Assembly: GCA_944392785.1 (NCBI GenBank)
Contig: CALXXW010000013.1
Coordinates: forward strand, 182,201-246,200
DNA: 64,000 nt
Source: an uncultured Alphaproteobacteria bacterium
GTDB lineage: Bacteria > Pseudomonadota > Alphaproteobacteria > CAAHEQ01 > UBA3637
Direction of reading: 5' to 3'
Notes under the pieces: generated by a model
Databases searched by the model: none
Seen by the model: the letters and a program-made list of their open reading frames with translations, nothing else
What the model was told of the DNA's origin: nothing
In this document: one piece after another, positions 12,696 through 60,398 of the stretch
Numbering within the stretch: the stretch's first letter is position 1
How the letters are laid out: every line of letters starts with the position of its first letter
Translations under genes and position numbers: made by a program

Positions 12696-14090
12696 ATGCT
12701 CTATTGGGGATTATTTTTATCTTTTGCCATATCTGTTCTGATTTATGCGTTTTATCCGTTCGGAGATAAGTTAAATGTCGAACGCCATCAAGCCGAAGCT
12801 TTAATCACAGCTTTTATCAATCAACACCAGGCCGCCAAAAATTATCTGGTACATGCGTTGCGGCTGCCGCCTCTCAACAACACCGGCATTGATGAAGGCT
12901 CCGAAGGTGTTGCCCTCTTTCCTCAAGAGCTGGATGATTTTATTCCGCCTTACATGGAAAGTGATCTATATCAGATTCAGGATAATAACGGAGAATTAAG
13001 AACGGCGTTGAATCCCGATCCGCAGAACAGCAACTATGTCGGAGGGGCTTTTTCCTCGGCTTTGATTTGTGTGAAACGCGATGACAGTAGCTTATCGCTC
13101 ATTCCGGATTACCACCTGACAAGTTGCCTAGACGGCTTGGCAGATCACCAATATATCATTACATACGGAGCTCGCCCCGAATGGTGGGACAATCAGACAT
13201 CCATCGAAATGAAAGGAACTTGGCGACATGCTGTTGCACGTATGACACATAATGCACCTAATTGCGGCACATTATTACATGATCCTAAAAACGGACAAAA
13301 AAACGGAGAACCCGTTTATTCTTTGGATAACGGGTATCGTATTTCGGTTGATATTGTCAACCCTCTGGTCACCCAAACACTTAAAAAAGCCGGTGTAAGC
13401 GGTGATTACATACATGACGATCTGATTGATTTATTCTTTTGCATTTCAGCCTATGGCGATCTTTATGTCCCGGGCGCTCTGTATCACTATGATGCAAACA
13501 GTAATACCCGAGAAGGATACAGTGAAACAGCCTCCCGTTGGACAAACTTGGGAACTGTTGGCGGAACATTATCGGCCCGTGTCGATAAACAGGGTTTACA
13601 ACCGACCTCCCGCCTAGATACGGGAATAACACTTAACCCCTATACAAACTATACCTTGACTCTGGTCATGCGCACAACGGATACACAAAACAACAAAACA
13701 TTAACCAGTGGTTTTCCAATCTTAACGACCGACAATCAGACGGATTTATACATTGCCGGACAGACAATTAACATGACCACGGCATCCTCTCGCCGAAACG
13801 ATATGGTGTCCATAACCTATGTCAATGACATAACAACGGGAGAAGGACGTCTCTATGTCAACGGGGAACCGGTTAAAACATTGACGGGAACAGAGCGAAC
13901 GGCTATCAGCGGGACTCTGTTCTTAGAGGCAACGAACACGCGCTTCTTCAACATCAAGTATTATGACACCGTTTTAGAAGAAGACTTTGTCTGGCAGAAT
14001 TATAAATGGGACAAACGCCGCTACAACATTCGCTTTAAAAATAAACGTAAAGTGGAGTATATTCACCGCAATCCCAATGACAAAGCTTAA
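12696..14090 (+). CDS. hypothetical membrane-anchored protein with C-terminal concanavalin-A/LamG-like lectin domain
   Basis: 464 aa. A 22-aa N-terminal hydrophobic segment is followed by an amphipathic, pilin-like helix. The C-terminal beta-rich region carries RLYVNGEPV and GTLFLEA motifs typical of LamG jelly-rolls. Confidence 0.6.
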   Translation: MLYWGLFLSFAISVLIYAFYPFGDKLNVERHQAEALITAFINQHQAAKNYLVHALRLPPLNNTGIDEGSEGVALFPQELDDFIPPYMESDLYQIQDNNGELRTALNPDPQNSNYVGGAFSSALICVKRDDSSLSLIPDYHLTSCLDGLADHQYIITYGARPEWWDNQTSIEMKGTWRHAVARMTHNAPNCGTLLHDPKNGQKNGEPVYSLDNGYRISVDIVNPLVTQTLKKAGVSGDYIHDDLIDLFFCISAYGDLYVPGALYHYDANSNTREGYSETASRWTNLGTVGGTLSARVDKQGLQPTSRLDTGITLNPYTNYTLTLVMRTTDTQNNKTLTSGFPILTTDNQTDLYIAGQTINMTTASSRRNDMVSITYVNDITTGEGRLYVNGEPVKTLTGTERTAISGTLFLEATNTRFFNIKYYDTVLEEDFVWQNYKWDKRRYNIRFKNKRKVEYIHRNPNDKA

Positions 14091-14149: not shown

Positions 14150-16111
14150 ATGATAAGAGATACAAATGAGCGCGGAGCAATCATGCTAGAGGTTATTGCC
14201 GTCTTGGCTTTAATTGGCGCAATGGGAACCCTGCTTTTTCGTCAAGTGTTGATGCGCAATCAAGAAGTCGACAATGTTAATATGGCAACCGAAGCACGTA
14301 TCATGAAGGAAAGTACTTTGGCCTATATTCAGGCTGATCGCGCTCTTTTACTTCAAAATACGACCTTAAATCCTCCTGACGGAAACGGGGGTTGTATCGT
14401 TCCCAACCAAGATGACGTTGCCGCCTTTATCCCGGACGGATATGTTGAGCTCAATTCGAGCGATCAATTCGAAGGCATTATAGATTACTACAACATCACG
14501 CTCTGTTCGTATAAGCCAACAGATGAAACGGAACCCGTTATGTATGGAATCATCGTTCCCAAAGCAGAACTCTTACCCTCGGAAATGAACCTAAAACGCG
14601 CTTCACGCGTGGCTGCTCTGATCGGATCGGGTGGTGGTGTTTGGCCCAGTCAAAACGAAGAACTCAGCGGAACGATGGGAGGCTGGCATTTACCGCCGGA
14701 TGGTCTGACTTATCCCGGCACTCCGACGTTTGTCGCTATTACGGGAATGGATATTTTTGTACCGGAACCGGAAAATTTACAGCAGTTAACAACGCTTAAA
14801 TTACAGCTGGATGATGATGCCAAGTTCACAAATTTACATGCCTCTGATTTCTTGTCCGTGGGCGCGGCAACCAATAATTGTTTTCGCAATGTGGGGACCG
14901 TCGATAAGCCCGAGTATGAAATCTTGCGCCCGGGGCAACGCAACAGCGATACAGGAGATATTTGTGATCCTCTCTTTTGGGTGGGAACGGTCGGAGCAAA
15001 CACAACCGAAGACCACTCAATACACGGACATGTCTATGCGAAACAAAACATGTATATCGGGCGAAAAAATCAAGCCAATATCCACGCTATTGCCTTAGAA
15101 AATGAAACGGCTAAAGGCGGACGCATTACCGTTTTTGATGATACAGGACGACAACGTTTGGTTATTGATGGCTCCGGCCGTCTGTTGGGCGGTATAGCCG
15201 CTAACACATCCGATATAGAAGATGACAGAAATGCCACTTTGATTCTAAAGCCCGGTAATTTACAGGATAACCTCAGTAAAGAATCCGCCAGTTTGACATT
15301 GCGCAGTTCAGATGAACAGGATGATTTGGAAATCAAAGACGGTCGCATTGTTGTGGCTCGTCAAACGCCCGATAAACTGGCCGAAAGTGCCACAACATCC
15401 TATCAACTGGATCCGGCCCATACATCGGTTGTCAACGAAATTCGGTTGGCTGCTCGAGGCGGTGCTCGTCTGAGCGATTTATTACCCAATTACATTTCTA
15501 AAACTATGGAAGCCATCACATCCAGCGGAACGGGTGCGTATTCCGAGCACACTCAAGCCGTCCCGACCTGTCCGAAAGGATATACGGCAGCCCTTATGGT
15601 CACACCGACACGTTGGGACACATCTCGTTTATCCGAGATTGATATTTCACATCAACGACGTTTAAATATCGATAATTTCTTTGTCAATGCTCCCGCAGAC
15701 GGAGGAACGGCTTATTTAAAGCGGCAGTCTGATGATAATAATGACCTGATAGATGAAGAAATCATCATCAAAAAAGAAGATAAGCGAGCCGATGACACAA
15801 CGCCCAAAATCAAAATGGAAAAAGCGCGCCTGGCTATTATGATTGATGAGGAAGATCCTCAAAACACGGCCGCTTTGGATACACAAAAGACCGGCTCTTC
15901 TTGGACCATTCGAATGGGTTATGTTGATGATAACAACCAATGGAGCGGCTCGGTGCAAGACACCATATCCGCCGTTGTTCAAACTTTCTGTGTCTATGAT
16001 CCGACCGCACATGAAGGAAATGCCAATCGCATTCCTTGTCCGGAACGTAAGACCGGTAGCCTTTGTCCCGCCGGCTGTCATGAAGATAACGGCATTTGCT
16101 ATAAGGATTAA
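14150..16111 (+). CDS. large type IV pilin-like protein (prepilin-type N-terminal cleavage/methylation motif)
   Basis: 653 aa with an AAGGAGA RBS. The leader MIRDTNERG is followed by AIMLEVIAVLALIGAMGTLLF (G at -1, E at +5). The C-terminus has a Cys-rich disulfide region. Confidence 0.6.
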   Translation: MIRDTNERGAIMLEVIAVLALIGAMGTLLFRQVLMRNQEVDNVNMATEARIMKESTLAYIQADRALLLQNTTLNPPDGNGGCIVPNQDDVAAFIPDGYVELNSSDQFEGIIDYYNITLCSYKPTDETEPVMYGIIVPKAELLPSEMNLKRASRVAALIGSGGGVWPSQNEELSGTMGGWHLPPDGLTYPGTPTFVAITGMDIFVPEPENLQQLTTLKLQLDDDAKFTNLHASDFLSVGAATNNCFRNVGTVDKPEYEILRPGQRNSDTGDICDPLFWVGTVGANTTEDHSIHGHVYAKQNMYIGRKNQANIHAIALENETAKGGRITVFDDTGRQRLVIDGSGRLLGGIAANTSDIEDDRNATLILKPGNLQDNLSKESASLTLRSSDEQDDLEIKDGRIVVARQTPDKLAESATTSYQLDPAHTSVVNEIRLAARGGARLSDLLPNYISKTMEAITSSGTGAYSEHTQAVPTCPKGYTAALMVTPTRWDTSRLSEIDISHQRRLNIDNFFVNAPADGGTAYLKRQSDDNNDLIDEEIIIKKEDKRADDTTPKIKMEKARLAIMIDEEDPQNTAALDTQKTGSSWTIRMGYVDDNNQWSGSVQDTISAVVQTFCVYDPTAHEGNANRIPCPERKTGSLCPAGCHEDNGICYKD

Positions 16112-18061: not shown

Positions 18062-19381
18062 ATGGAAATGACAAAATCTAAATTAGCTCATGAATTACAT
18101 GTTAAAATTCCGGCAGTTGAGTTTGCTGCCAAGATGGATGCTAAACTGGCCGAAATACAAAAAGAAGCCAAAATTCAAGGCTTCCGACCGGGTCAAGCCC
18201 CGATGAATCTGATTAAATCTAAGTATGAGAGCGCCGTTAAGGGCGAAGTGTTGGACGCTATCGTCAACGAGTATATAACTAAGACGTTTCATGAAAACAA
18301 AATCCGTCCTGCTTTGCGTCCTCAAGTCGAATTGACCGTTTTTGAAGACGGTAAAGATATTGAGTTCAAAGTTAATGTTGAGGCTCTTCCGACAATCAAA
18401 CCGGCCGAATTAAAAGATTTAGAAATTCAAAAATTGGTTGCAGATGTCACGGATGATGATGTCGGCAAAGCGTTGGATAAATTAGCGGCTTCCAGAAAAA
18501 CAACCGAAGTCATCAACGAAAAACGTCCAACGAAAGAAGGAGATGTTGTTGTCATTGATTTTGTCGGTTCCATTGACGGGAAAGAATTTCGGGGCGGCAA
18601 AGGAAATGATTATTACCTAGCTTTGGGTTCAAACACTTTTATCCCCGGATTTGAAGCTCAGTTGGTTGGAAAAAACATCGGGGATCATGTAGATGTTTCC
18701 GTGACCTTCCCGGATAACTATCATGCCAAAGAACTTGCCGGCAAACAGGCTTTGTTCAAAGTTGTTTTAAAAGAATTACGTCAGTTTAAAACTCCGGAAA
18801 TCAATGACGATTTTGCCAAACAATTCGGCGCGGATGGCTTAGAAAAATTAAAAGGAATGATCCGTGACGAGCTGGACAAAGAATATAAAACCATTGCTCG
18901 TCAACATGCAAAACGTGCCCTACTGGACGTCTTAGCCGAGAAACATTCGTTTGAAGTCCCTGAAGGAATGGTGAATTTAGAATTTGATGCCATCTGGAAA
19001 CAGTTCGAAGATGCCAAAAAAGCAAATCAGTTGGACGAAGACGAAAAGAAAAAATCAGATGATGAATTGAAAAAAGAATACCGTGCCATTGCTGAACGTC
19101 GTGTACGTCTGGGACTTTTGTTGGCTGAAATAGCCAATGAACACAAAATTGTCTTGACTCAGGACGATTTAACCAACGCTATTATGGCCGAAGCACGTCG
19201 CCTGCCCGGACAAGAGAAAATGGTATTCGAATACTATCAAAAAAATCCTAAGGCCTTAGATGCCTTGCGAGCCCCCTTGTTCGAAGAAAAAGTCGTTGAC
19301 TTCATCTTGGGCGTTGTCAAGTCCACCGAAAAGAAGCTGTCCGCAGAAGAGCTTTACGCTTATAACCCGGACAAAAAATAA
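18062..19381 (+). CDS. tig: trigger factor
   Basis: 439 aa with an FKBP-type PPIase middle domain (VVVIDFVGSIDGKEFRGG). Confidence 0.9.
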   Translation: MEMTKSKLAHELHVKIPAVEFAAKMDAKLAEIQKEAKIQGFRPGQAPMNLIKSKYESAVKGEVLDAIVNEYITKTFHENKIRPALRPQVELTVFEDGKDIEFKVNVEALPTIKPAELKDLEIQKLVADVTDDDVGKALDKLAASRKTTEVINEKRPTKEGDVVVIDFVGSIDGKEFRGGKGNDYYLALGSNTFIPGFEAQLVGKNIGDHVDVSVTFPDNYHAKELAGKQALFKVVLKELRQFKTPEINDDFAKQFGADGLEKLKGMIRDELDKEYKTIARQHAKRALLDVLAEKHSFEVPEGMVNLEFDAIWKQFEDAKKANQLDEDEKKKSDDELKKEYRAIAERRVRLGLLLAEIANEHKIVLTQDDLTNAIMAEARRLPGQEKMVFEYYQKNPKALDALRAPLFEEKVVDFILGVVKSTEKKLSAEELYAYNPDKK

Positions 19382-19468
19382 GGAATCGGGTGAATGTCGA
19401 AACAGCTGTCTTTTAACACATACATGCCTAGGTACTTTTCGGCATTGACGGGGACAAAAGAAGTCTTG

Positions 19469-19497
19469 TTTGACGTTCATCCTATCCATTCCTACTA
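19469..19497 (+). promoter_or_regulatory. putative sigma70 promoter in the tig-clpP spacer
   Basis: TTGACG-N17-TACTAT about 260 nt upstream of clpP. CTTG and CCATTCCT elements nearby could alternatively form a sigma32-type promoter. Confidence 0.35.
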
Positions 19498-19755
19498 TAA
19501 AAGGCTTATATCCTTACTTCGGGGTTATTTGAGAGAGAAGGATGTCTTTCTGTTGAAAAAGACTCGGTCAGATAATGATCGAGTGCTTTTTCTTTTTTCG
19601 AAAATCTATGGAATCCTCTTTTACTTTAACTTCCATATGAATTCGCTTCTCTTTTTGAATAAAAAGGTTATACCATCGCAATGCCCTATCCCGCACAGGG
19701 GTGTGTATTATTTATAAGACAAGCCTCTTGAGGCACAACAACAAGGAGAGATAAA

Positions 19756-20364
19756 ATGCAGATTTTTGATAATACCTTAGTTCCAACCGTCATCGAACAA
19801 AGCGGCCGTGGAGAACGCGCTTTCGATATTTATTCGCGTTTGTTGAAGGAACGTATTGTCTTTTTAACCGGGGCCGTCAATGATGAGGTCGCCAGTCTGA
19901 TTTGTGCTCAACTGTTGTTTTTAGAGGCAGAAAATCCGACAAAAGAAATCTCTTTTTATATCAACTCCCCAGGCGGTGTTGTCACGTCCGGATTAGCCAT
20001 TTTGGACACAATGAATTATATTCGTTGCCCTGTTTCAACCGTTGTTATGGGGCAAGCGGCCAGCATGGGCAGCTTATTGCTGACATGTGGGGAAAAAGGA
20101 CGACGCTTTGCTCTGCCTAATGCACGCGTTATGATCCATCAACCCTCCGGTGGTTTCAGCGGACAAGCAACCGATATGGAAATTCACGTACGTGAAATTC
20201 TATCTATCAAACGACGTCTCAATCAAATTTACGTCGAACGGACAGGACAAACGCTCGAAACCATTGAAGCCGCTATGGAACGCGACAACTTTATGACAGC
20301 AGAAGAAGCAAAATCTTTTGGCCTAATCGATGAAGTTATTACGCAAAAACAAACTGAAAAATAG
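19756..20364 (+). CDS. clpP: ATP-dependent Clp protease proteolytic subunit
   Basis: 202 aa with catalytic Ser in GQAASMGS and His in VMIHQP. Confidence 0.95.
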
Positions 20365-20373
20365 GAGATTTCC

Positions 20374-21657
20374 ATGTCAACAGATAATAAAAACAACGGC
20401 CTTATTTGCTCATTTTGCGGAAAAACACAAAACGAAGTGCGTAAGCTCATTTCCGGACGCTCTTTAACGTCATCTGGCGGTAAGATGGAAATGGTCTTTA
20501 TTTGCGATGAATGTATCGAGCTCTGCAACAGCGTCATTCAAGATGAATTTCAAAAAAAGGATATCCCAGCGTCTGCCGAACAACTCACATTAAAAACACC
20601 GCAGGAAATCAATGCAGTTCTAGATCAATACGTTATCGGACAGGAACGGGCTAAAAAAGTCCTTTCCGTAGCTGTCTACAACCATTATAAACGTTTAAAT
20701 GCCAAGGTTAATTCTGCCGATGTAGAGATTGAAAAATCCAATATCCTGCTTTTAGGCCCGACAGGTTGTGGCAAAACACTGCTGGCTAAAACACTGGCCA
20801 GAATTCTGGATGTCCCTTTTGCCATTGCTGACGCTACGACTTTGACAGAGGCCGGATATGTCGGTGAAGACGTGGAAAATGTGGTGTTAAAGCTCTTACA
20901 AAATGCCAATTATGATGTCAAAAAGGCCGAACGCGGCATTATTTATATTGATGAAATTGATAAAATTTCGCGTAAATCCGATGGCCCCTCCGTGACACGA
21001 GATGTTTCGGGTGAAGGTGTTCAACAGGCCCTATTAAAATTGATGGAGGGAACGGTAGCCTCCCTTCCTCCCCAAGGCGGGCGTAAGCACCCCAACCAGG
21101 AATATATTCAGGTAAATACTCAAAATATCTTATTTATCTGTGGCGGTGCTTTTGCCGGTCTGGACAAAGTTATCGCACAACGCGATACAGCTTATTCGGT
21201 TGGCTTTGGGGCAACCGTAAAAGATAAGTCAACACTAAAGACCGGAGAGTTATTGGCAAAGGTGGAACCCGAGGATTTATTACATTACGGTCTCATCCCG
21301 GAATTTATCGGACGTTTGCCCATGATTGTATCCCTGGAAGATTTGGATGAAAAAGCTTTGATTCAAATTTTAACAGCTCCCAAAAATGCCCTTGTCAAAC
21401 AATATCAGGCTCTCTTTCAAATGGAGGGGGTTCAACTGACTTTGACCGATGAAGCGCTTGTTGCCATTGCAAAGCAGGCTCTTGAACGTAAAACAGGGGC
21501 GCGAGGCTTACGCTCTATCATGGAAAATGTCTTGATGGATGTGATGTATGACTTACCGACCATGGCTCACTTAAAGGAAGTTCTTATCGGTGCTGACGTT
21601 ATCACGGACGGAGCAAAACCTACTTTTGTCTTTGAAGAGTCTTTAAAGTCAGCTTAA
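20374..21657 (+). CDS. clpX: ATP-dependent Clp protease ATP-binding subunit ClpX
   Basis: 427 aa with an N-terminal C4 zinc finger (CSFCGK...CDEC), Walker A GPTGCGKT and the GYVG pore loop. Confidence 0.95.
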
Positions 21658-21736
21658 GGCACTAAATTATCCTTGTCAAAAAAGGCTTTTCGGAATATAA
21701 TAGAAGATAGGAAAATCTTGTCTGGGGAGAAGTTAT

Positions 21737-22534
21737 ATGACGATAAAGTCTTTTTTAAAAACCATTGTACCCGTCGGTGTTATGACAGGCTCTGTTTTTC
21801 TGAGTGGTTGTCATCGGGGAGATAAGTCTTACTCGGATGTTGTCAAACCCTCTCAGAAAGCACCATCGACTTTACTTGCCGTTAATACCCAGGCAGAAAT
21901 AGAGGTGGCACGTACCGAGGCTATCTATAAAGCCATCCAAAAGATTGAGGGCGCATTCATTTCTTATTTACCCTTTCCATCGGCAGACGGAAAAATTCGT
22001 GTCGGTTTTGGTGTCCCTATTTCAGAGGAAGCTTTTTTAAAAACACAATTCTATCAACAAACAAAGAAGGGCGCGCTCCCCTATCCTCTGGCAGACAATC
22101 CCATTTTGCTCAATCAATTAAAAACAAAGGGGCAAACGGGAAAAATCCGTTTGCGTGATAAGGAAATTCGCCAACTGACAAAAGCATGGATATCTGAAAC
22201 TTACCCTCAAATCAAACAGACGCTCCCTTGCCTTGATCAACTGCCGATTTCAACGCTTGCCGCAATTATGTTGCTGGAGATGAACAGTGATTCTATACAC
22301 ATACCTGCCTCACCTTTGAGGGACTTGGCGCAAGGGGGGGTGGATTTAGAGAAAAAACTAGAAGTTTTTTTACCGGCTCAACTCTCTCCCAACGACGATG
22401 TGATTCCTCTTCCCTCTTCAAGTCGCTCTCCGAAAGTCTTCGAAAAAGCGCTTGTCACTATTTTGCGGCACAATAAAATACCGCATGTACCCCCTCAATA
22501 CATTCCCAGGCAAGTCCCGGACAATCAACGTTAA
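21737..22534 (+). CDS. lipoprotein with phage-lysozyme (GH24)-like N-terminal motif, paralog 1
   Basis: Signal peptide with lipobox LSGC. EG-x4-Y-x5-DGKIRVGFG and AAIMLLEM resemble T4 lysozyme EG...Y.D.EG..TIGIG and ALINMVFQMG. Confidence 0.5.
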   Translation: MTIKSFLKTIVPVGVMTGSVFLSGCHRGDKSYSDVVKPSQKAPSTLLAVNTQAEIEVARTEAIYKAIQKIEGAFISYLPFPSADGKIRVGFGVPISEEAFLKTQFYQQTKKGALPYPLADNPILLNQLKTKGQTGKIRLRDKEIRQLTKAWISETYPQIKQTLPCLDQLPISTLAAIMLLEMNSDSIHIPASPLRDLAQGGVDLEKKLEVFLPAQLSPNDDVIPLPSSSRSPKVFEKALVTILRHNKIPHVPPQYIPRQVPDNQR

Positions 22535-22546
22535 GGAGGCGAATTT

Positions 22547-23314
22547 ATGTCATTAAAATCTAAAATCAAAACATTTTTACCTATCGGTTTATTGGCTGCA
22601 ACAACGGCCTGGACGGCACAAAACTATCTTCAGACAGACTCTGCTTCACAGAACGAGTCCATAACGGCCCATCAATACCCTCCTGTCATTGAAACGCTTT
22701 ACCAAGAAATCTGTCAAATGCCCGAGGCCTTTATATCAACACATCCTTATGTAGACAGAAACAATGTGTTGCGTGTTGGATTTGGAACTCCCCTGGAAGA
22801 AGAGGAAATCAACGTGACTCATTTTTACCACGAGACTCCCCAAGGCGTACGCCCCTACCCTCAAAAAGAAAATTGGCAACTTGTCGACCATTTATATAAA
22901 AATGGGCAATCGGCCGATATTTTCATTCCCCGAGAGGAAATTGAACTTCTGACCAAACGTTGGCTGCATAAAAACTATGAAAAGCTTCAAAAGATATTAC
23001 CTGAAATAGGACAATTTTCACCGTCTAAACAAGCGGCACTGATGTTGTTGGAGATGACAGAACAATCCATCACGCGCGATGGCACTTTTATCGGCCTTTT
23101 TAAAAAAGCTCTTAAAACGGATCATTACATGGGGTTAGTAGCTTACATACATTTGTCACCTCGCATACATATGGTGCAGGGAAAGGAACAACTGTTGGTC
23201 TCGTCAAAAACCGACTCGTTGGAAACGGCTTTAATTATGCGTCTGACACAGCCGAATCAAGCGCATGCAGCTTTGACAAATCAACTGGCAATCAAGCAAC
23301 AAAACTCTCGATAG
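22547..23314 (+). CDS. secreted protein with phage-lysozyme (GH24)-like motif, paralog 2
   Basis: Tandem paralog sharing the EAFIS...RVGFG.P.EE...FY..T..G..PYP and AALMLLEM blocks with the upstream gene. Confidence 0.5.
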   Translation: MSLKSKIKTFLPIGLLAATTAWTAQNYLQTDSASQNESITAHQYPPVIETLYQEICQMPEAFISTHPYVDRNNVLRVGFGTPLEEEEINVTHFYHETPQGVRPYPQKENWQLVDHLYKNGQSADIFIPREEIELLTKRWLHKNYEKLQKILPEIGQFSPSKQAALMLLEMTEQSITRDGTFIGLFKKALKTDHYMGLVAYIHLSPRIHMVQGKEQLLVSSKTDSLETALIMRLTQPNQAHAALTNQLAIKQQNSR

Positions 23315-23550
23315 CCCGGGTGGAGACGATACATCTCTTGTAGGCATTCAATAAGACTCTAAATCCGGCCTTATATGTTAAGGCGTTCGACTCGCCTATA
23401 TCGAATATAGGGATGACTCAAAAATGAGAGCTTCTTTTAAAAGAGAGTATAAACAAGGCACTTCCTCTTAAGAAGAGCAGACGCATGATAAGATTTTATA
23501 TAAAAATAGCATATAAAAAGACGAAGCACAAAAAGGCTTCGCCTCTATCT

Positions 23551-23627
23551 TGGTGGGTGTGGCAAGACTCGAACTTGCGACCTTTACGATGTCAACGTAA
23601 CGCTCTAACCACCTGAGCTACACACCC
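23551..23627 (-). tRNA. tRNA-Val (anticodon GAC)
   Basis: Minus-strand cloverleaf with acceptor GGGTGTG/CACACCC, anticodon loop TTGACAT and encoded CCA. A hairpin terminator lies downstream at 23523..23545. Confidence 0.85.
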
Positions 23628-23753: not shown

Positions 23754-24971
23754 TTATTGATAACGCAAAGCTTCAATAGGATCCAACTTCATGGCCTTGA
23801 CCGCCGGCATAAGCCCCGACGCAACACCGACAATAACAGCTACTGAAATTGAAATGACAACGGACCAAATAGAAATCGGAACCTCCTTTTCGAAAAAGAC
23901 ACCCGCGATTTGAGACAACACAACACCCAGAATCATTCCGACAAAACTTCCCATAAAAGAAATAATAACCGACTCGGTCAAAAATTGCGCCATAATCCAA
24001 CGATTCGGAGCCCCCAAGGCTTTACGTGTACCAATTTCACGCGTTCTCTCTGTCACGGAAACAAGCATCATATTCATAATTCCAATACTGCCCACGATTA
24101 GAGAAATCGATGCAATCGCCGCCAACAGCAAGGATAAAATCAACCCAATACTGCGCACTTTTTCCACCATATCCGTCATCAACCTTACCGTAAAATCATT
24201 ATCCGTTCCTTCTTTTAAACGGTGTCTGGCTCTTAATTGATACTCAATCCGGCGTGCAACAGACTCCATCCGATCCTCAGATGACACCTTGACAAATGCA
24301 ACATCTGTATAGTTGGGACGCGGAGAACCACGTAATCGTTGACGTAATGTTGTGACGGGCATCATAATAATGTTATCTTGATCATCTCCCATCATCCCAT
24401 CGCCTTTTTCTTTCAACACACCAATCACTCGAAAAGGTTGCCCTTTCAAGCGTAATGTTTTACCAATCGGATCTTGCAGTCCGAATAATTCGTTCACAAT
24501 GGTTTGACCAATTAAAACATAAGGACGTCCGGAACGCTGATCTTTATCTGTCCATACGCTTCCGGATTCAAGCTCCCAGTTCCCGACCTCTAAGTAATCC
24601 GGATTTGTTCCCAACACGCTGACGCCATAATTATTTGAACCATAAACAGCCTGAACCGCTGCATTCACAATATAAGAAGCCGTATCAACATCTTTTAACT
24701 TTTTCAACGAGGTCACATCATCAAACGTGACACTGGGACGTCCACGCCCTCCACGAACACCACCGCTCACCGTTTCAGCCGGTCCGATGATAATTAAATT
24801 CGTTCCCATGGAATCAAAAGTTCGTGTAATTTCATTTTGAACCGTTTGACCGGCCGCCACCATCATCACAACAGCAGCTACACCGATCATAATCCCAAGC
24901 ATTGTCAAAAATGTTCGAAGCTTATAAGCTGAAATAGAAATCCATGCTTCTCGCAAAATTTGATAAATCAT
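23754..24971 (-). CDS. ABC transporter permease, FtsX/MacB family
   Basis: 405 aa with an N-terminal TM helix, a large periplasmic MacB-PCD-like domain and a C-terminal FtsX 3-TM bundle. Confidence 0.85.
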   Translation of the reverse strand: MIYQILREAWISISAYKLRTFLTMLGIMIGVAAVVMMVAAGQTVQNEITRTFDSMGTNLIIIGPAETVSGGVRGGRGRPSVTFDDVTSLKKLKDVDTASYIVNAAVQAVYGSNNYGVSVLGTNPDYLEVGNWELESGSVWTDKDQRSGRPYVLIGQTIVNELFGLQDPIGKTLRLKGQPFRVIGVLKEKGDGMMGDDQDNIIMMPVTTLRQRLRGSPRPNYTDVAFVKVSSEDRMESVARRIEYQLRARHRLKEGTDNDFTVRLMTDMVEKVRSIGLILSLLLAAIASISLIVGSIGIMNMMLVSVTERTREIGTRKALGAPNRWIMAQFLTESVIISFMGSFVGMILGVVLSQIAGVFFEKEVPISIWSVVISISVAVIVGVASGLMPAVKAMKLDPIEALRYQ

Positions 24972-25717
24972 GCCAGAATCTCCTTATTATAATCAGCGCG
25001 TAAACCATCGTACTCTTTACATCCGTCATTAATTTTAATCATCCGTTTGGCATAGTCCGCCACATCATCCTCATGCGTCACTAACACGATTGTAATGCCT
25101 TGAGCATTTAAACGCGTAAAAAGCTCCATGATTTCATCTGATGTTTTAGAATCCAAATTCCCTGTCGGTTCATCTGCAAAAATAATGGCCGGATTGTTAA
25201 TCAAAGCCCGCGCAATGGCAACACGTTGTTGCATTCCGCCGGAGATTTGAGTCGGTAGACGATTTTCATACCCCTTCAATCCTACCACCTGCAGCATTTG
25301 AACAGCACGCTCATAGCGTTCCGTTTCTCCCACACCCTGATAAATTAAAGGCAATGAAACATTATCTGCTATGGTTCTTTTCATCAATAAATTGAAGTTT
25401 TGAAAGACAAATCCTATTTCCTGTCCTCGAATTTGTGCCAATTCTTCATCTGTTTTATCCGCAATGGACTTCCCCGATAAAATATACATACCCGAGGTCG
25501 GACGGTCCAAGCACCCCAAGATATTCATTAACGTCGATTTTCCGGAGCCGGAATGCCCCATAATGGACACGAACTCGCCCGAAAAAATTTGAAACGAAAT
25601 GTGTTTCAAAACAGATTGACTGGCCCCCCCCATCATGTAATAAGTCTTTGAAAGGTCCTTCACTTCAATAACAGGAGTACGATCAGATTTTTTTTGTGTC
25701 GTTAACTTCGCCATCAT
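24968..25717 (-). CDS. ABC transporter ATP-binding protein (MacB/LolD-type)
   Basis: Walker [10 protein letters not shown], signature SGGMQQR and Walker B IIFADEP. Confidence 0.9.
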
Positions 25718-26841
25718 TTGGAACGTTTACGCCCCCCAATCGCCTCTAAAATGACTTCATCATTTTCGTTCAAGCCCTCTTGAATTTCAACCGAGGTCAA
25801 ATCAGCCAAGCCTTTCTTAACAACACGCGGAACAATACGACCGTTTTCAAACAGATATACAACATCTTCATTCTTTTCGGGATCAGCCGAGACACGCTCA
25901 TGAATAGTCGCCCGAACAACAGCCGAAGGCTTATATTGAAACGCCATCGTCGGCAATGTCAACACATCTTTAGCCTCTGCCACTCGCACCGTCACGGAGG
26001 CCGTCATACCGGGAAGTAATTTACGACTGGAATTATCCACTTCAATAACAACCGTATACATAACAACATTCGACTCCTCTGTCGGCGATAACCGCACCTG
26101 GCGAACGATTCCCGGAAAACGATCGTTGGGATACGCATCTACAGTAAATGTGACTGGCATTTGTGTTGTAATGGCTCCGATATCCGCCTCGGCTACACTG
26201 GCTTCTATTTGCATCTTAGACAAATCTTCGGCTAAAGTAAAAAGTGTCGGCGTAGATAAACTGGCGGCTACGGTTTGCCCTTCTTCTACCTCTTTCGAAA
26301 TAATGGTACCGGAAACCGGTGAAGTAATGCTGGCATATCCGAAATTACGCTCGGCTTTATTATATTCGGCCTGAGATGTCAACACATCGGCCTTGGCTTC
26401 TTCCAAAGCAATTTCAGCTTCTTCCAAAGAGGCTTTTGCCACCAGCTTGTCCTTAAATAACTTTTCGATCCGTGAATAATTCAAACGCGCGATTCGTTCT
26501 TTGGCCTTAGCAAGCTCTAACCGAGCTGCCGCATCATTCTTATTTTCGACCAACACAGCCGTATCCAGCATAGCCAACAACTGTCCTTCTTTGACTTCAT
26601 CATTATAGTCGACCAAAACTTGCTCAATAATACCGGAAACTTGCGTTCCTACCGTGATCGTATTAATCGGTTGTATCTTACCCGAAGCCGTAATTTCGTA
26701 AACAACATCTCCTCTTTCAACGGCAACCATTTCAAAGTCTTCGGGTGTCAACCCCTGTTTCTTGCGCTGCATGGACACAACACCGGCTCCAATCACAACA
26801 ATCAATACAGCCATTAAAAACAACTTCATCTTTTTTTTCAT
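25714..26841 (-). CDS. efflux periplasmic adaptor (HlyD/MacA family membrane fusion protein)
   Basis: 375 aa with an N-terminal anchor, a coiled-coil hairpin and lipoyl/beta-barrel segments typical of membrane fusion proteins. Confidence 0.85.
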   Translation of the reverse strand: MKKKMKLFLMAVLIVVIGAGVVSMQRKKQGLTPEDFEMVAVERGDVVYEITASGKIQPINTITVGTQVSGIIEQVLVDYNDEVKEGQLLAMLDTAVLVENKNDAAARLELAKAKERIARLNYSRIEKLFKDKLVAKASLEEAEIALEEAKADVLTSQAEYNKAERNFGYASITSPVSGTIISKEVEEGQTVAASLSTPTLFTLAEDLSKMQIEASVAEADIGAITTQMPVTFTVDAYPNDRFPGIVRQVRLSPTEESNVVMYTVVIEVDNSSRKLLPGMTASVTVRVAEAKDVLTLPTMAFQYKPSAVVRATIHERVSADPEKNEDVVYLFENGRIVPRVVKKGLADLTSVEIQEGLNENDEVILEAIGGRKRSK

Positions 26842-26842
26842 A

Positions 26843-28201
26843 TTAAAATCTCCCTATAGCACGATATAATGTCGATTTACTGGTCAACACGCCATAAAAT
26901 GCCACAATCACATCCGTACGCGCCGTCGCCAGCTGAGACCCTGCCGTTAATAAATTTAAAATACTTTCCTGTCCAATCTGATATGAAGCAAAGGCTACAC
27001 GCTCATTTTCAACGGCACTTTCTAAGGCCTTTTGTGTAATGGCATACGAAGAAATAGCCGTCTGATAGTTTTGATAAGCCGACCAAACTTGATTGCGAAT
27101 ATCATCCGCCGTCGCAGCTAAATCTAACGCCGCTTGATTATACCGAAAGCGAGCGGCAGAAACATTATATGTATTCGAAAAACCCATAAAAATAGGTATG
27201 GATAAAGACACCCCTATGGATGAGCTGAGCTGATAATTTGTCCGATGTTTCCACGCATCATCATATCCGGCACGTGCCGTGGCAGAGACAGAGGGCAACC
27301 CCTCGGAACGTGCAATGTCAATAGCTTTTTCAGCCGCCAACAACGTACTCCGTTTACTTTGCATTTCAGGGCGCGCGGTCAAAGCTACCTCCATCATTTC
27401 AGACACCGTCATATCCGTCTCCAACTGCGTAATATCGCGATCTTTCGGCGGAGGAGCCAATGTAAACGGCGTATCCGGCGGTAAATTCAATAACACAGCC
27501 AAAACACCCGCATTTTGCTTCACGGCATTTTCAGCTTGAACGACTGTCAAACGAGACTGTTCATAGGTTGTTTTAGCCAACAACTGATCGCTGGCCGAAA
27601 CAAGCCCTAATTCGAAACGTCGAACAGACTCTTCATAAGACTTTTTAAATGAAGCCTCACTGGTACGCGCGCTTTTTAAAACTTCCTCAGCACTCAACAA
27701 ATCAAAATAGGCCGTCGTAATTGACAACACCGTATCTCGCAAGGTCGCATTGTAGGTGAACTGAGCCGCATCCAGATAAGCTTTCATCTGATCAACTTGA
27801 GCGGAACGCCCACCGAAGTCATACATCAACCAAGACAAAGCCACATTTGCCTCATAAGGCTCCTCCTGGCGTCCATGTTCACCCTGCTCCCGTTGATGAG
27901 AGGCATTTAATCCGGCCGATGCCGTGATGTCCGGAAGATATGATGACCGAGAAGCGCCATAAGAAGCCTCAGACTCCTTCACGGACATGTAGCTACGGCT
28001 CAAAGTGGGATTATTGCAAATACCGATTTGTATCAGTTGGATCAAATCGATCGCTTCTTCTCCGATTTTTGCATCCAAACAATCGGTCGGGGCCTTTGCT
28101 CGATAAACAGAAAAAGGATCCAATGCCAAAGCCGGCACAGCCACAAGTGCCAGCATACACCCCACAAACATTGCCCTATACTTAACAAGTTGTTGTTTCA
28201 T
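26843..28201 (-). CDS. TolC-family outer membrane efflux protein
   Basis: 452 aa with a signal peptide and two repeated OEP halves. First gene of the OMP-MFP-ATPase-permease operon. Confidence 0.8.
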   Translation of the reverse strand: MKQQLVKYRAMFVGCMLALVAVPALALDPFSVYRAKAPTDCLDAKIGEEAIDLIQLIQIGICNNPTLSRSYMSVKESEASYGASRSSYLPDITASAGLNASHQREQGEHGRQEEPYEANVALSWLMYDFGGRSAQVDQMKAYLDAAQFTYNATLRDTVLSITTAYFDLLSAEEVLKSARTSEASFKKSYEESVRRFELGLVSASDQLLAKTTYEQSRLTVVQAENAVKQNAGVLAVLLNLPPDTPFTLAPPPKDRDITQLETDMTVSEMMEVALTARPEMQSKRSTLLAAEKAIDIARSEGLPSVSATARAGYDDAWKHRTNYQLSSSIGVSLSIPIFMGFSNTYNVSAARFRYNQAALDLAATADDIRNQVWSAYQNYQTAISSYAITQKALESAVENERVAFASYQIGQESILNLLTAGSQLATARTDVIVAFYGVLTSKSTLYRAIGRF

Positions 28202-36540: not shown

Positions 36541-37680
36541 ATGAAACAAACACAAAGCGGAAATCATTTAACCGTCGACTTGGAACAAAAAGGAAATGTT
36601 CTCGTGTTAAATTTAGCGGGAGATTTTCATCAGTTTGAAGCGGCCCCCAAAGCTCATGAAATCATTCATAAGATCCGTCAAGTTCATCCCCAAAAGCTGA
36701 TCGTGCAGGATAATGGTATCGGCAGTTGGGATTCATCTTTATTGGCCTTACTCTATCAACTGCTTCAAGCCCTTCAACCGACAAACATTACCGTTGAAAC
36801 AGACGCTTTACCCCAGGAATTATCACATCTGTTGACATTGGCCTTTTCGGTGGATCGCCACCCCAAACGCCCATCTGTAAAAGATTTCGGTTTTTTGGGT
36901 AATATCGGAAATGCGTGTTTGAATCTCTATCAACCTATCCGTCAGGGTGTCAGCTTTTTGAAGCAAGTTGGCTTTTCATTAGGACGTTGGGCCCAAGGAA
37001 AAGCGATTATGCGTCCCGTTGACTTTTGGTTTGCCTTACAAGATTGCGGCCCGAATGCTCTGGGAATAGTGGCTTTAATCAGCTTTATGGTTGGCTTGAT
37101 TTTGGCTTTTGTCGGCGCTATTCAGCTCAAATCTTTCGGGGCACAGATTTATGTGGCCAGTTTGGTCGCCATTGGCATGACGCGCATTATGGGAGCTATT
37201 ATGGTCGGAATCATCATGGCCGGCCGAACAGGCGCTTCTTATGCGGCAACCATCGGAACGATGCAAGTCAATGAAGAGTTGGATGCCTTGCAGACCATGG
37301 GGATTCCGCGCTCTGATTTTTTGGTGTTGCCGCGAGTCCTAGCGTTAAGTTTAACAATGCCGCTGTTAACATTACTGGCCGATGTCATGGGCATGATCGG
37401 GGGCGGTGTCGTTGGCATTTTTATGTTGGATATTTCTCCTTCGGAATACTGGAAGTATTCAATGGATGCCTTTGATATTACCAACTTTTTAGTTGGTGTC
37501 TTTCATGGCCTTGTTTTCGGTATTATTATTGCGCTGTGCGGGTGCTATTACGGCGTCTTTTGCGGACGAAGTGCTGATAGTGTCGGACGCGCCACAACAC
37601 AAGCCGTCGTCAGTGCTATCGTCTGGATGATTGTCATGACAGGCCTGATTACTTGGGGATGTGAGGCCTTAGACATATGA
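36541..37680 (+). CDS. mlaE: MlaE-family ABC permease with N-terminal STAS (MlaB-like) domain fusion
   Basis: The C-terminal 260 aa align with the MlaE permease. The N-terminal ~115 aa resemble an anti-sigma-antagonist/STAS fold. Confidence 0.75.
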   Translation: MKQTQSGNHLTVDLEQKGNVLVLNLAGDFHQFEAAPKAHEIIHKIRQVHPQKLIVQDNGIGSWDSSLLALLYQLLQALQPTNITVETDALPQELSHLLTLAFSVDRHPKRPSVKDFGFLGNIGNACLNLYQPIRQGVSFLKQVGFSLGRWAQGKAIMRPVDFWFALQDCGPNALGIVALISFMVGLILAFVGAIQLKSFGAQIYVASLVAIGMTRIMGAIMVGIIMAGRTGASYAATIGTMQVNEELDALQTMGIPRSDFLVLPRVLALSLTMPLLTLLADVMGMIGGGVVGIFMLDISPSEYWKYSMDAFDITNFLVGVFHGLVFGIIIALCGCYYGVFCGRSADSVGRATTQAVVSAIVWMIVMTGLITWGCEALDI

Positions 37681-59225: not shown

Positions 59226-60398
59226 TTAAGGGGAGGAAAACACCGGTTTTTCCTTGGGGACATCCGGTATTTTAGATGAGGAATCACCCGTTTTTTTGGA
59301 GCTCTTATCTTGTTTTGAAGTTGTAGATGATATCGTCGAAACAAGAGGTTCTGATTGCTTTTGCGACGCTGATTTGACCGCCACCGGTTGCTTTTGTTGT
59401 GCAACACTTCGGCTGAGGGGTTTTAAGCCTTTTCGAATCCGACGCCAGTTTTTAACATTCCATTGATGTTCTTTATAGGTTTCCGCAAAAACATGTCCTC
59501 CGGTTCCGTCTGCAACGAAATAAATGTCTTTTGTTTCCATCGGGTGCAAAACAGCTTGTAGCGATTTATATCCCGGGTTTGAAATCGGACCATCGGGTAA
59601 TCCGTAAATGACATAGGTATTATAGGGGTGTTGATACCGCAAATCCGCATATGTCAAACTTCTATTCAAATCTAAACGCCCGTTTGTCACGGCATAAATC
59701 ACCGTTGGATCAGACTGCAAGCGAATATTCTGTTCTAAGCGATTGATAAATACCGAAGCAATATGAGCACGTTCACGATCTAAAGACGTTTCCTTTTCAA
59801 CGATTGAAGCCATAACGACAGCCTCTTTCACATCACGAAAAGGCAGACCTTCGGCGCGGGTCGGCCACAGCTCTTCCAATGCTCGTCTCATAGCATTTTG
59901 CATACGCCGAATCATGGACTCTTTTGTGTCACCATAGGTGTAGTGATACGTATCCGGAAGCAATGTCCCATTTCGTGGAATGTGCTTCACTTCACCCTCC
60001 AGTCCCCTCATTCCATCCATTAAGGCCACTATCTGAGCAGATGTCAGCCCTTCAGGAACAACCAAACGTCGAACGACCGTATTTCCGCCGATCAAAATGT
60101 TCATAACCATTTTGGCGCTGGCGCCCCGTGGAAAAGAATACTCCCCAGCCTTCAATTTTTCAGCATTTCCGCTGGCACGCGTGCCTAAAACAAAAATGGA
60201 CGGACTGGCAATCACGCCTTCCTCATGCAACAGCGCAGCGACTTGTTTTAATCCTTTTCCCTTAGGAATGACCACTTCCTTACGCTCTGTCAAGGGGCCT
60301 TCGGCAACGAACTGATTATAGGTTGTAAAAACACTGCCGCCAATCAAAGACAGAACAAAAAATAGGATAAAGAAATAAATAAAGACACCGCGCCGCAT
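59226..60398 (-). CDS. mltG: endolytic murein transglycosylase MltG (YceG family) with disordered C-terminal tail
   Basis: N-terminal TM helix and a YceG domain. The last 70 aa are Ser/Lys/Gln-rich low complexity. Confidence 0.85.
   Translation of the reverse strand: MRRGVFIYFFILFFVLSLIGGSVFTTYNQFVAEGPLTERKEVVIPKGKGLKQVAALLHEEGVIASPSIFVLGTRASGNAEKLKAGEYSFPRGASAKMVMNILIGGNTVVRRLVVPEGLTSAQIVALMDGMRGLEGEVKHIPRNGTLLPDTYHYTYGDTKESMIRRMQNAMRRALEELWPTRAEGLPFRDVKEAVVMASIVEKETSLDRERAHIASVFINRLEQNIRLQSDPTVIYAVTNGRLDLNRSLTYADLRYQHPYNTYVIYGLPDGPISNPGYKSLQAVLHPMETKDIYFVADGTGGHVFAETYKEHQWNVKNWRRIRKGLKPLSRSVAQQKQPVAVKSASQKQSEPLVSTISSTTSKQDKSSKKTGDSSSKIPDVPKEKPVFSSP

Follow-up and report, generated by a model that had tools for sequence, protein, structure and literature searches.

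A tandem pair of exported proteins with a predicted phage-type lysozyme fold and a non-conserved catalytic triad in an uncultured alphaproteobacterium

Two adjacent genes on the forward strand of a 64,000-nucleotide stretch of DNA from an uncultured alphaproteobacterium (contig CALXXW010000013.1; the whole stretch is called the window below) encode paralogous exported proteins whose predicted fold is that of the GH24 phage-type lysozymes. The first open reading frame (ORF1, 21737-22534) encodes 265 residues and the second (ORF2, 22547-23314) encodes 255. The explanation that best accounts for the pair, to which a probability of about 0.55 can be given, is that the two proteins belong to a GH24-fold family of exported proteins that bind peptidoglycan with attenuated or absent hydrolysis, and that the gene was duplicated in this lineage. 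The link of the fold to GH24 is supported as a remote relationship, which lies below the reach of profile hidden Markov models (HMMs). From it and from the state of the catalytic residues we infer the peptidoglycan ligand, the lack of hydrolysis and the physiological role.

The family consists of about 12 cluster representatives among about 15 billion proteins. The first of its three groups is the window pair; the second, the lipoprotein group, consists of P0010, P0011, P0012 and P0014; the third has six proteins, five of them with a twin-arginine signal, SRR[SG]FL. A lipobox is present in ORF1 and in three homologues.

The two paralogues and their export signals

ORF1 and ORF2 are 33% identical over 187 residues in a BLASTP alignment (E = 7e-31), and global alignments give 30-31%. 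A sequence-only reading of this stretch had described them as tandem paralogues of about 25-30% identity, to which the measured 30-33% is close. The other frames over the two genes hold no competing open reading frame of at least 60 residues. The blocks AFIS, RVGFG-x-P, EE and AA[IL]MLLEM are exact in both proteins. The sequence-only reading had linked these blocks into one pattern; the blocks stand, but its opening element, E-[GA]-F-I-S-x-P, fits neither protein literally. The motif reads E71-G-A-F-I-S-Y-L-P...S82-A-D84-G-K-I-R88-VGFG in ORF1 and E60-A-F-I-S-T-H-P-Y-V-D70-R-N-N-V-L-R76-VGFG in ORF2. Relative to an invariant Tyr and the AFIS block, the Glu residues of the two proteins occupy different columns, with E71 of ORF1 facing P59 of ORF2 and G72 facing E60. 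The spacing from Asp to Arg also differs, being 4 positions in ORF1 (D84-R88) and 6 in ORF2 (D70-R76).

The layout of the two proteins is as follows.

21737-21811, + strand: ORF1 signal peptide and lipobox L22-S-G-C25, from reading of the sequence and a regular expression; the Cys25 codon is at 21809-21811
21812-21883, + strand: ORF1 low-confidence linker, residues 26-49 (predicted local distance difference test score, pLDDT, below 50 for residues 1-49)
21884-22336, + strand: ORF1 GH24-like domain, residues about 50-200, from the predicted model
22547-22618, + strand: ORF2 Sec-type signal peptide, residues 1-24, from the N-terminal alignment, with cleavage placed by eye between ...AATTAWTA and QNY
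22667-23065, + strand: ORF2 confident GH24-like core, residues 41-173 (E60, D70, R76-VGFG, AALMLLEM), from the predicted model

The lipobox of ORF1 conforms to the lipoprotein pattern [LVI][ASTVI][GAS]C and follows a Lys-rich n-region with K4 and K8 and a hydrophobic core; its +2 residue is His, not Asp. The n- and h-regions of ORF2 align with those of ORF1 residue for residue, but its signal region has no Cys, the lipobox Cys having been lost compared to ORF1 and the lipoprotein homologues. The assignment of an LSGC lipobox to the first protein and a plain signal peptide to the second, made in the sequence-only reading, is therefore correct at the level of the sequence (Cys25 in one, no Cys in the other). 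Fifteen linker residues of ORF1 are missing in ORF2, and four of the seven amino acid differences between ORF1 and its orthologue on contig L001 fall at residues 28-52, in or beside the linker. The ORF1 domain that follows is predicted to contain, in order, a helix, a three-strand sheet with RVGFG, a family-specific β-hairpin (FYQQT..PYP), a long inter-lobe helix, and helices that include AAIMLLEM.

Predicted fold

The predicted fold of both paralogues is the two-lobe α+β fold of GH24, with an N-terminal helix, a three-strand sheet and a long inter-lobe helix. Pesticin and a few others are among the 60 fold matches listed, and T4 lysozyme fusion constructs make up most of the rest; none of these 60 is identifiable by its description as a member of GH19, GH22, GH23 or GH46. 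The two targets, at 33% identity, converge on the same topology, and all five ORF2 models agree.

Because T4 lysozyme is over-represented in the PDB, a check that uses only sequences and is independent of AlphaFold2 was added. The family was compared by hhalign with a GH24 alignment built from sequences confirmed in the PDB or by a RefSeq record. The alignment has a score of 22.8 (E = 0.013, probability 3%) and extends over 110 collinear columns. None of 100 column-shuffled controls reaches this score (mean 11.5, standard deviation 2.2, maximum 19.5). Taken by groups, the lipoprotein group stands furthest from the shuffled controls (z 7.4, P = 0.0035, reached by none of 100), followed by the window pair (z 4.1, reached by 1 of 100); the twin-arginine group is not significant against its shuffles (z 1.1, reached by 10 of 100).

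In the hhalign alignment RVGFG falls on the T-I-G-x-G hairpin of GH24, and AA[IL]MLLEM falls on DALxSLxFNxG, which corresponds to ALINMVFQMG of T4 lysozyme. The homologues' NAGxFxxAAxE, in the lipoprotein group, falls on the GH24 segment LNxGDYxxAA. A family-specific β-hairpin, FY..T..G..PYP, is inserted after strand 3. The T4-lysozyme-like fold and the block equivalences that had been proposed from the letters of the sequence are thus supported both by the predicted fold and by the profile alignment. No member of the 12 matches the PF00959 profile, and the only signal to that family is the weak profile-profile one.

The possibility has to be considered that the lysozyme-like fold is a prediction artefact, in which case the proteins would have another fold and an unrelated function, and the likeness of the motifs would be due to chance. 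It would fit with the shallow, overlapping alignments from which the models were made, with the single confident model among the five for ORF1, with hhalign probabilities of only 1-9% and the weak result for the twin-arginine group, and with the lack of any match in the profile-HMM libraries. Such an artefact would not be expected to give the same topology for two targets that are only 33% identical, nor the agreement of all ORF2 models. Neither would it account for a profile comparison which owes nothing to AlphaFold2, is collinear along the whole domain and beats 100 of 100 shuffles, or for the GH24 C-lobe motif N-A-G-x-[FY]-x-x-A-A in the distant homologues. An artefact is therefore improbable.

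Catalytic residues

GH24 enzymes keep three catalytic residues, Glu11, Asp20 and Thr26 in the numbering of T4 lysozyme. Both P22 lysozyme and SpmX become inactive when the Glu is lost (bioRxiv 10.1101/418723).

The position of Glu11 in the family depends on how the sequences are aligned. A gap-free alignment to RrrD, and likewise an alignment by way of the twin-arginine group, places it on Ala73 of ORF1 and Ala61 of ORF2. The hhalign alignment, whether made with the pair or with the whole family, places it on E71 with a gap of two residues; E60 of ORF2 then falls on the following Gly column. The residues of the 12 members in the relevant columns, with ORF1 and ORF2 first, are:

E71 column: E, P, S, D, P, S, S, S, S, S, S, S
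Strict-register Glu11 column: A, A, C, G, C, S, C, S, S, S, S, S
Asp20 column: S, D, gap, Q, D, D, gap, D, D, D, D, D
Thr26 column: R, R, K, L, Y, R, K, R, R, R, R, R

In the E71 column the Glu is missing from nine of the 12 members, which have Ser or Pro, and a tenth has Asp. In the Asp20 column, D70 of ORF2 and the residues of seven homologues are Asp, while ORF1 has S82, with D84 two residues further on; in two members a gap precedes a Glu, and a further member has Gln with an Asp after it. Thr is absent from the Thr26 column, where R88 of ORF1 and R76 of ORF2 stand and where 10 of the 12 members have Arg or Lys. In the ORF2 model, strand 1 is formed by residues 64-69, D70 follows directly, and R76 lies in strand 2; D20 and T26 have the same geometry in T4 lysozyme. 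Members with an acid in the D20 column usually have a base in the T26 column as well, and this pairing suggests that a salt bridge replaces the catalytic water site. As far as can be judged from the aligned sequences, the catalytic triad is not a conserved feature of the family. The sequence-only reading had described the shared blocks as a T4-lysozyme-like catalytic motif; a conserved catalytic dyad is not supported, with the Glu in different columns of the two paralogues and missing from nine of 12 members, and with Ser in ORF1 at Asp20.

The members that have lost the Glu are nevertheless constrained. Four twin-arginine homologues could be located on contigs.

8001-8714 of L003: twin-arginine homologue
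4784-5497 of L005: twin-arginine homologue
5317-6030 of L006: twin-arginine homologue
1548-2252 of L007: twin-arginine homologue

The segment TSQSGMSLRPC around the lost catalytic Glu is invariant among these four. For three Glu-less orthologues (L003, L005 and L006) the ratio of nonsynonymous to synonymous substitution rates (dN/dS) is 0.12-0.18 at a dS of 0.5-1.0, which indicates that the family encodes constrained proteins, under purifying selection without the Glu. Between the window pair and its closest strain, nonsynonymous and synonymous changes number 7 and 4 in ORF1 and 3 and 3 in ORF2, too few to be informative.

It is conceivable, although on balance unlikely, that the pair are active periplasmic muramidases or lytic transglycosylases, with E71 and E60 as the catalytic acids, and that they serve as housekeeping autolysins, one tethered and one soluble. 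The GH24-like predicted fold would be that of an enzyme, and hhalign does put E71 on the catalytic Glu, for the pair as for the whole family, with a two-residue insertion. In ORF2, E60 and D70 are 10 positions apart, compared to 9 for E11 and D20 of T4 lysozyme, and D70 directly follows strand 1, as D20 does. Lipoproteins that cleave glycans, such as MltA-E, are common in diderm bacteria. Furthermore, SpmX is weakly active with both D20 and T26 changed and the Glu kept (bioRxiv 10.1101/418723). An active pair, however, is difficult to reconcile with Glu columns that differ between the paralogues even though the adjoining AFIS block and the invariant Tyr line up gap-free, or with a family in which nine of 12 members have no acidic residue at this place and yet purifying selection acts. 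The Arg or Lys in the T26 column beside the Asp in most members, which suggests a salt bridge in the catalytic water site, the Ser of ORF1 at the D20 column, and the lack of HMM-level similarity to any glycosidase family also speak against activity.

Membership and rarity of the family

Neither ORF1 nor ORF2 has a Pfam or NCBIfam match at E<=10, and the 12 members together give only scattered, chance-level matches to Pfam and PHROGs (best E 0.03). Searches of PDB sequences return nothing for ORF1 or the family profile, and only chance-level matches for ORF2 (E about 1). Homologue P0010 has no tblastn match in 50,697 phage genomes. Word-index searches of 5.8 billion clusters find for the pair only orthologues that are 97-99% identical and lie in the same gene context; altogether these searches yielded seven proteins. 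When 1.84 billion representatives were searched exhaustively with an HMMER profile, five distant homologues of 237-279 residues were gained (E 2e-7 to 1e-5). With a last profile search the total reached 12. A scan of GTDB genomes with the family alignment, using patterns drawn from the signal peptide and the beginning of helix 1, found no relative. Further copies of the family are absent from the window, from the contigs that bear homologues, and from the surroundings of clpX in 80 other genomes. The genes of the window were found only in metagenome assemblies (ERZ17292904, ERZ24773526 'BRZ_RH' and ERZ28614090 'ONAT22-1').

Identity is about 30% between the two window paralogues and 16-24% between them and the rest of the family, which points to a lineage-specific tandem duplication. 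The located twin-arginine members are single-copy and lie, on all four contigs, in a block composed of hsp33 on the opposite strand, recX, the homologue, and convergent lptF/G. As these homologues sit by recX and lptF/G, a position after clpX is not a trait of the family.

Proposed role of the pair

By combining these observations, it is possible to describe how the pair might work. ORF1 and ORF2 would form a two-gene unit that arose by tandem duplication in this lineage. ORF1 would be anchored to the membrane by a lipid on Cys25, from which a flexible linker of about 25 residues would lead to the domain, and ORF2 would be released into the periplasm as its soluble partner. In the predicted domain the scaffold of GH24 is kept, with its N-terminal helix, its Gly-x-Gly β-hairpin, its long inter-lobe helix and a hydrophobic helix along the cleft, but the Glu-Asp-Thr catalytic triad is not. 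As the triad is not kept, the cleft most likely binds glycan strands without hydrolysing them, or with strongly attenuated hydrolysis. ORF1 would then bind glycan strands from its membrane tether and ORF2 would do so in solution, in a role that may be cell-wall organisation or regulation rather than lysis.

Several points weigh against this proposal. The triad was mapped by way of weak profile alignments (hhalign probability 1-9%) and a predicted secondary-structure register. Both window paralogues, unlike most members of the family, have a Glu at the end of helix 1, one or two residues from the canonical position, and Asp70 of ORF2 is in exact register with D20; a shift of the loop could place the Glu correctly and the pair could then be active. 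The structural models have weak sides of their own: only one of the five AlphaFold2 models of ORF1 is confident (mean pLDDT 55.8, compared to 31-37 for the others), the alignments behind the models are shallow and overlapping, with 4 and 10 sequences, and the C-terminal lobe of both proteins is poorly predicted, pLDDT being lower than 50 from residue 204 onwards in ORF1 and from residue 174 onwards in ORF2. The heavy over-representation of T4 lysozyme in the PDB could bias the prediction of the fold. Finally, no conserved neighbour that would point to a pathway was found.

Tentatively, and with less assurance than the proposal of attenuated binding itself, the family might be regarded as a new pseudo-enzyme branch of the lysozyme superfamily which has lost the Glu, is held by purifying selection, uses three routes of export (lipoprotein, Sec and Tat) and serves as a tether or regulator that binds peptidoglycan. 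For example, the anchor, linker and glycan-binding domain of ORF1 could, by analogy, link a membrane to the wall as Pal or OmpA-like domains do.

The sequence-only reading had also offered a mimic of lysozyme inhibitors. Were the two proteins lysozyme inhibitors, or immunity proteins against muramidase toxins, a periplasmic or lipoprotein location would be expected, as for MliC, PliC, PliG and many immunity proteins of type VI secretion systems, and degenerate catalytic residues would cause no surprise. No Pfam family is matched, however, the inhibitor families included, and the predicted fold is that of an enzyme and not one of the β-rich folds of Ivy, MliC/PliC or PliG. There is also no effector or secretion-system gene beside the pair or beside the distant homologues. 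An inhibitory function is thus very improbable, and attenuated binding of peptidoglycan by a GH24-like domain continues to be the preferred explanation.

Genomic context and expression signals

The pair follows tig (18062-19381), clpP (19756-20364) and clpX (20374-21657); the Pfam domains of all three were taken from an almost identical contig. The sequence-only reading had placed the pair directly after clpX, and the spacer between clpX and ORF1 is indeed only 79 nucleotides long. The expectation that lon usually occupies this place is loosely supported, as a Lon-like open reading frame lies directly downstream at 30 of 58 sufficiently long clpX loci from diverse bacteria; the Lon-like call is a crude test of length and Walker-A motif. 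The genomes compared cover many phyla and include no close relative (ClpX identity <=65% to the GTDB representatives returned). The idea that the position after clpX is a clue to function, with the pair in place of Lon, was rejected, because the distant homologues adjoin recX and lptF/G instead.

Three candidate signals of expression accompany the genes.

21673-21701, + strand: sigma-70-like promoter candidate TTGTCA-17-TATAAT in the clpX-ORF1 spacer, matching 11 of 12 consensus positions
22533-22539, + strand: ORF2 Shine-Dalgarno sequence AAGGAGG, read from the sequence, 7 nucleotides before the ATG and overlapping the ORF1 stop codon
23522-23541, + strand: terminator-like hairpin about 200 nucleotides past ORF2, abutting the opposite-strand tRNA-Val(GAC); a consensus match only

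The promoter candidate is suggestive only, since the scan finds no more sites than in shuffled sequence. No terminator-like site was found between clpX and ORF1, so that read-through from clpPX is also possible. ORF1 has the Shine-Dalgarno sequence GGGGAG. The gap of only 12 nucleotides between ORF1 and ORF2, together with the AAGGAGG before ORF2, implies a bicistronic unit. The tRNA-Val(GAC) gene lies on the reverse strand directly after the pair (23522-23627 with the hairpin), and the hairpin could end transcription from both sides.

The composition of the two genes is ordinary, with a guanine-plus-cytosine (GC) content of 0.42-0.45 compared to 0.435 for the whole window. At positions 21750-22999, inside ORF1 and ORF2, the GC skew is negative (-0.09 to -0.18), though the genes are on the forward strand; it is near zero or positive in tig, clpP and clpX, which are likewise on the forward strand. 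An origin of the pair from a prophage, or a function as a phage lysis endolysin, was considered and rejected: the pair lies among tig, clpP, clpX, tRNA-Val and a MacAB-type efflux operon, holin and spanin genes are absent, and the GC content is normal.

The efflux operon, which is convergent with the pair, consists of four genes on the reverse strand (23754-28201) that encode an FtsX/MacB permease, an ABC ATPase, a membrane-fusion protein and an OEP/TolC-like outer-membrane factor. A MacB-type operon with an outer-membrane factor indicates that the host is diderm, and the gene for MltG in the window (59226-60398) indicates that it makes peptidoglycan.

Other genes of the window were noted in passing. 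Between tig and clpP lies a 107-residue open reading frame (19394-19717, + strand) which is predicted as a gene on every related contig and has no Pfam match; its translation is rich in Phe, Leu and Tyr and not protein-like, and the 375-nucleotide spacer between tig and clpP may be regulatory rather than coding. Two large neighbouring open reading frames on the forward strand (12696-14090 and 14150-16111; 464 and 653 residues) match neither Pfam nor NCBIfam. An MlaE-family permease of 379 residues (36541-37680, + strand) has a match to the 260-position model that starts at residue 162, and its N-terminal extension of about 120-160 residues is matched by no family at E<=1e-5.

Comparison with known systems

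The predicted two-lobe fold and the order of its elements are the same in the pair and in the GH24 phage-type lysozymes (T4 gpe, P22 gp19, RrrD of the E. coli prophage DLP12, and phage 21 R; PF00959). Both have the Gly-x-Gly hairpin (RVGFG in the pair, T-I-G-x-G in GH24), a strand-1 aromatic residue (the Y18 column), and the hydrophobic helix of the cleft (AAIMLLEM in ORF1, DALxSLxFNxG in GH24), while the distant homologues have NAGxFxxAA. The family differs from GH24 in having no detectable HMM-level similarity to it, a Glu that is not conserved, Arg or Lys in place of the Thr, and an Asp that is only partly kept. The residue past the second Gly of the hairpin is His in T4 lysozyme, P22 lysozyme and RrrD, and Thr, Val, Cys or Pro in the family. 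A β-hairpin of about 25-30 residues after strand 3, an N-terminal export signal with a linker, and a long divergent C-terminal part are further differences. In contrast to the phage enzymes, the pair is chromosomal and lies outside any prophage.

The lambda R transglycosylase has a fold like that of T4 lysozyme and needs only the Glu. The pair can be likened to lambda R and to the MltA-E lipoproteins, the latter being lipid-anchored periplasmic proteins that act on glycan strands.

The closest precedent is SpmX of the Caulobacterales (PDB 6h9d), in which a GH24 domain with D20L and a free T26 has been co-opted and its activity attenuated (bioRxiv 10.1101/418723). SpmX keeps the Glu, needs it in vivo and is clearly like phage lysozymes in sequence (bioRxiv 10.1101/418723). 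In the family described here the sequence is no longer recognisably similar, and most members lack the Glu as well. SpmX also has intermediate and transmembrane domains, whereas the family is exported as lipoproteins or through the Sec or Tat route.

The LytM factors EnvC, NlpD and ActS, which regulate cell-wall hydrolases, are exported or lipoprotein pseudo-enzymes which keep their fold and have lost their catalytic residues (PMC8360153, PMC12440217). Their likeness to the pair is one of functional analogy only; the LytM/M23 fold is unrelated, and nothing points to a partner hydrolase for the pair.

The pair is a very narrow, highly diverged new variant within a known fold family. It opens no long-standing question, as diverged lysozyme-like proteins of the envelope are to be expected and the family is very narrow. 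An unannotated domain family would be added to the cell-envelope proteins of an uncultured diderm lineage, together with a small, testable set of natural variants of the T4 lysozyme fold with a remodelled active site. If the proposed reading is true, the phage-type lysozyme fold can diverge beyond the reach of sequence-profile libraries and its catalytic Glu is dispensable, and the family would be the second case after SpmX, and a more extreme one, of this fold in a non-lytic role in the cell.

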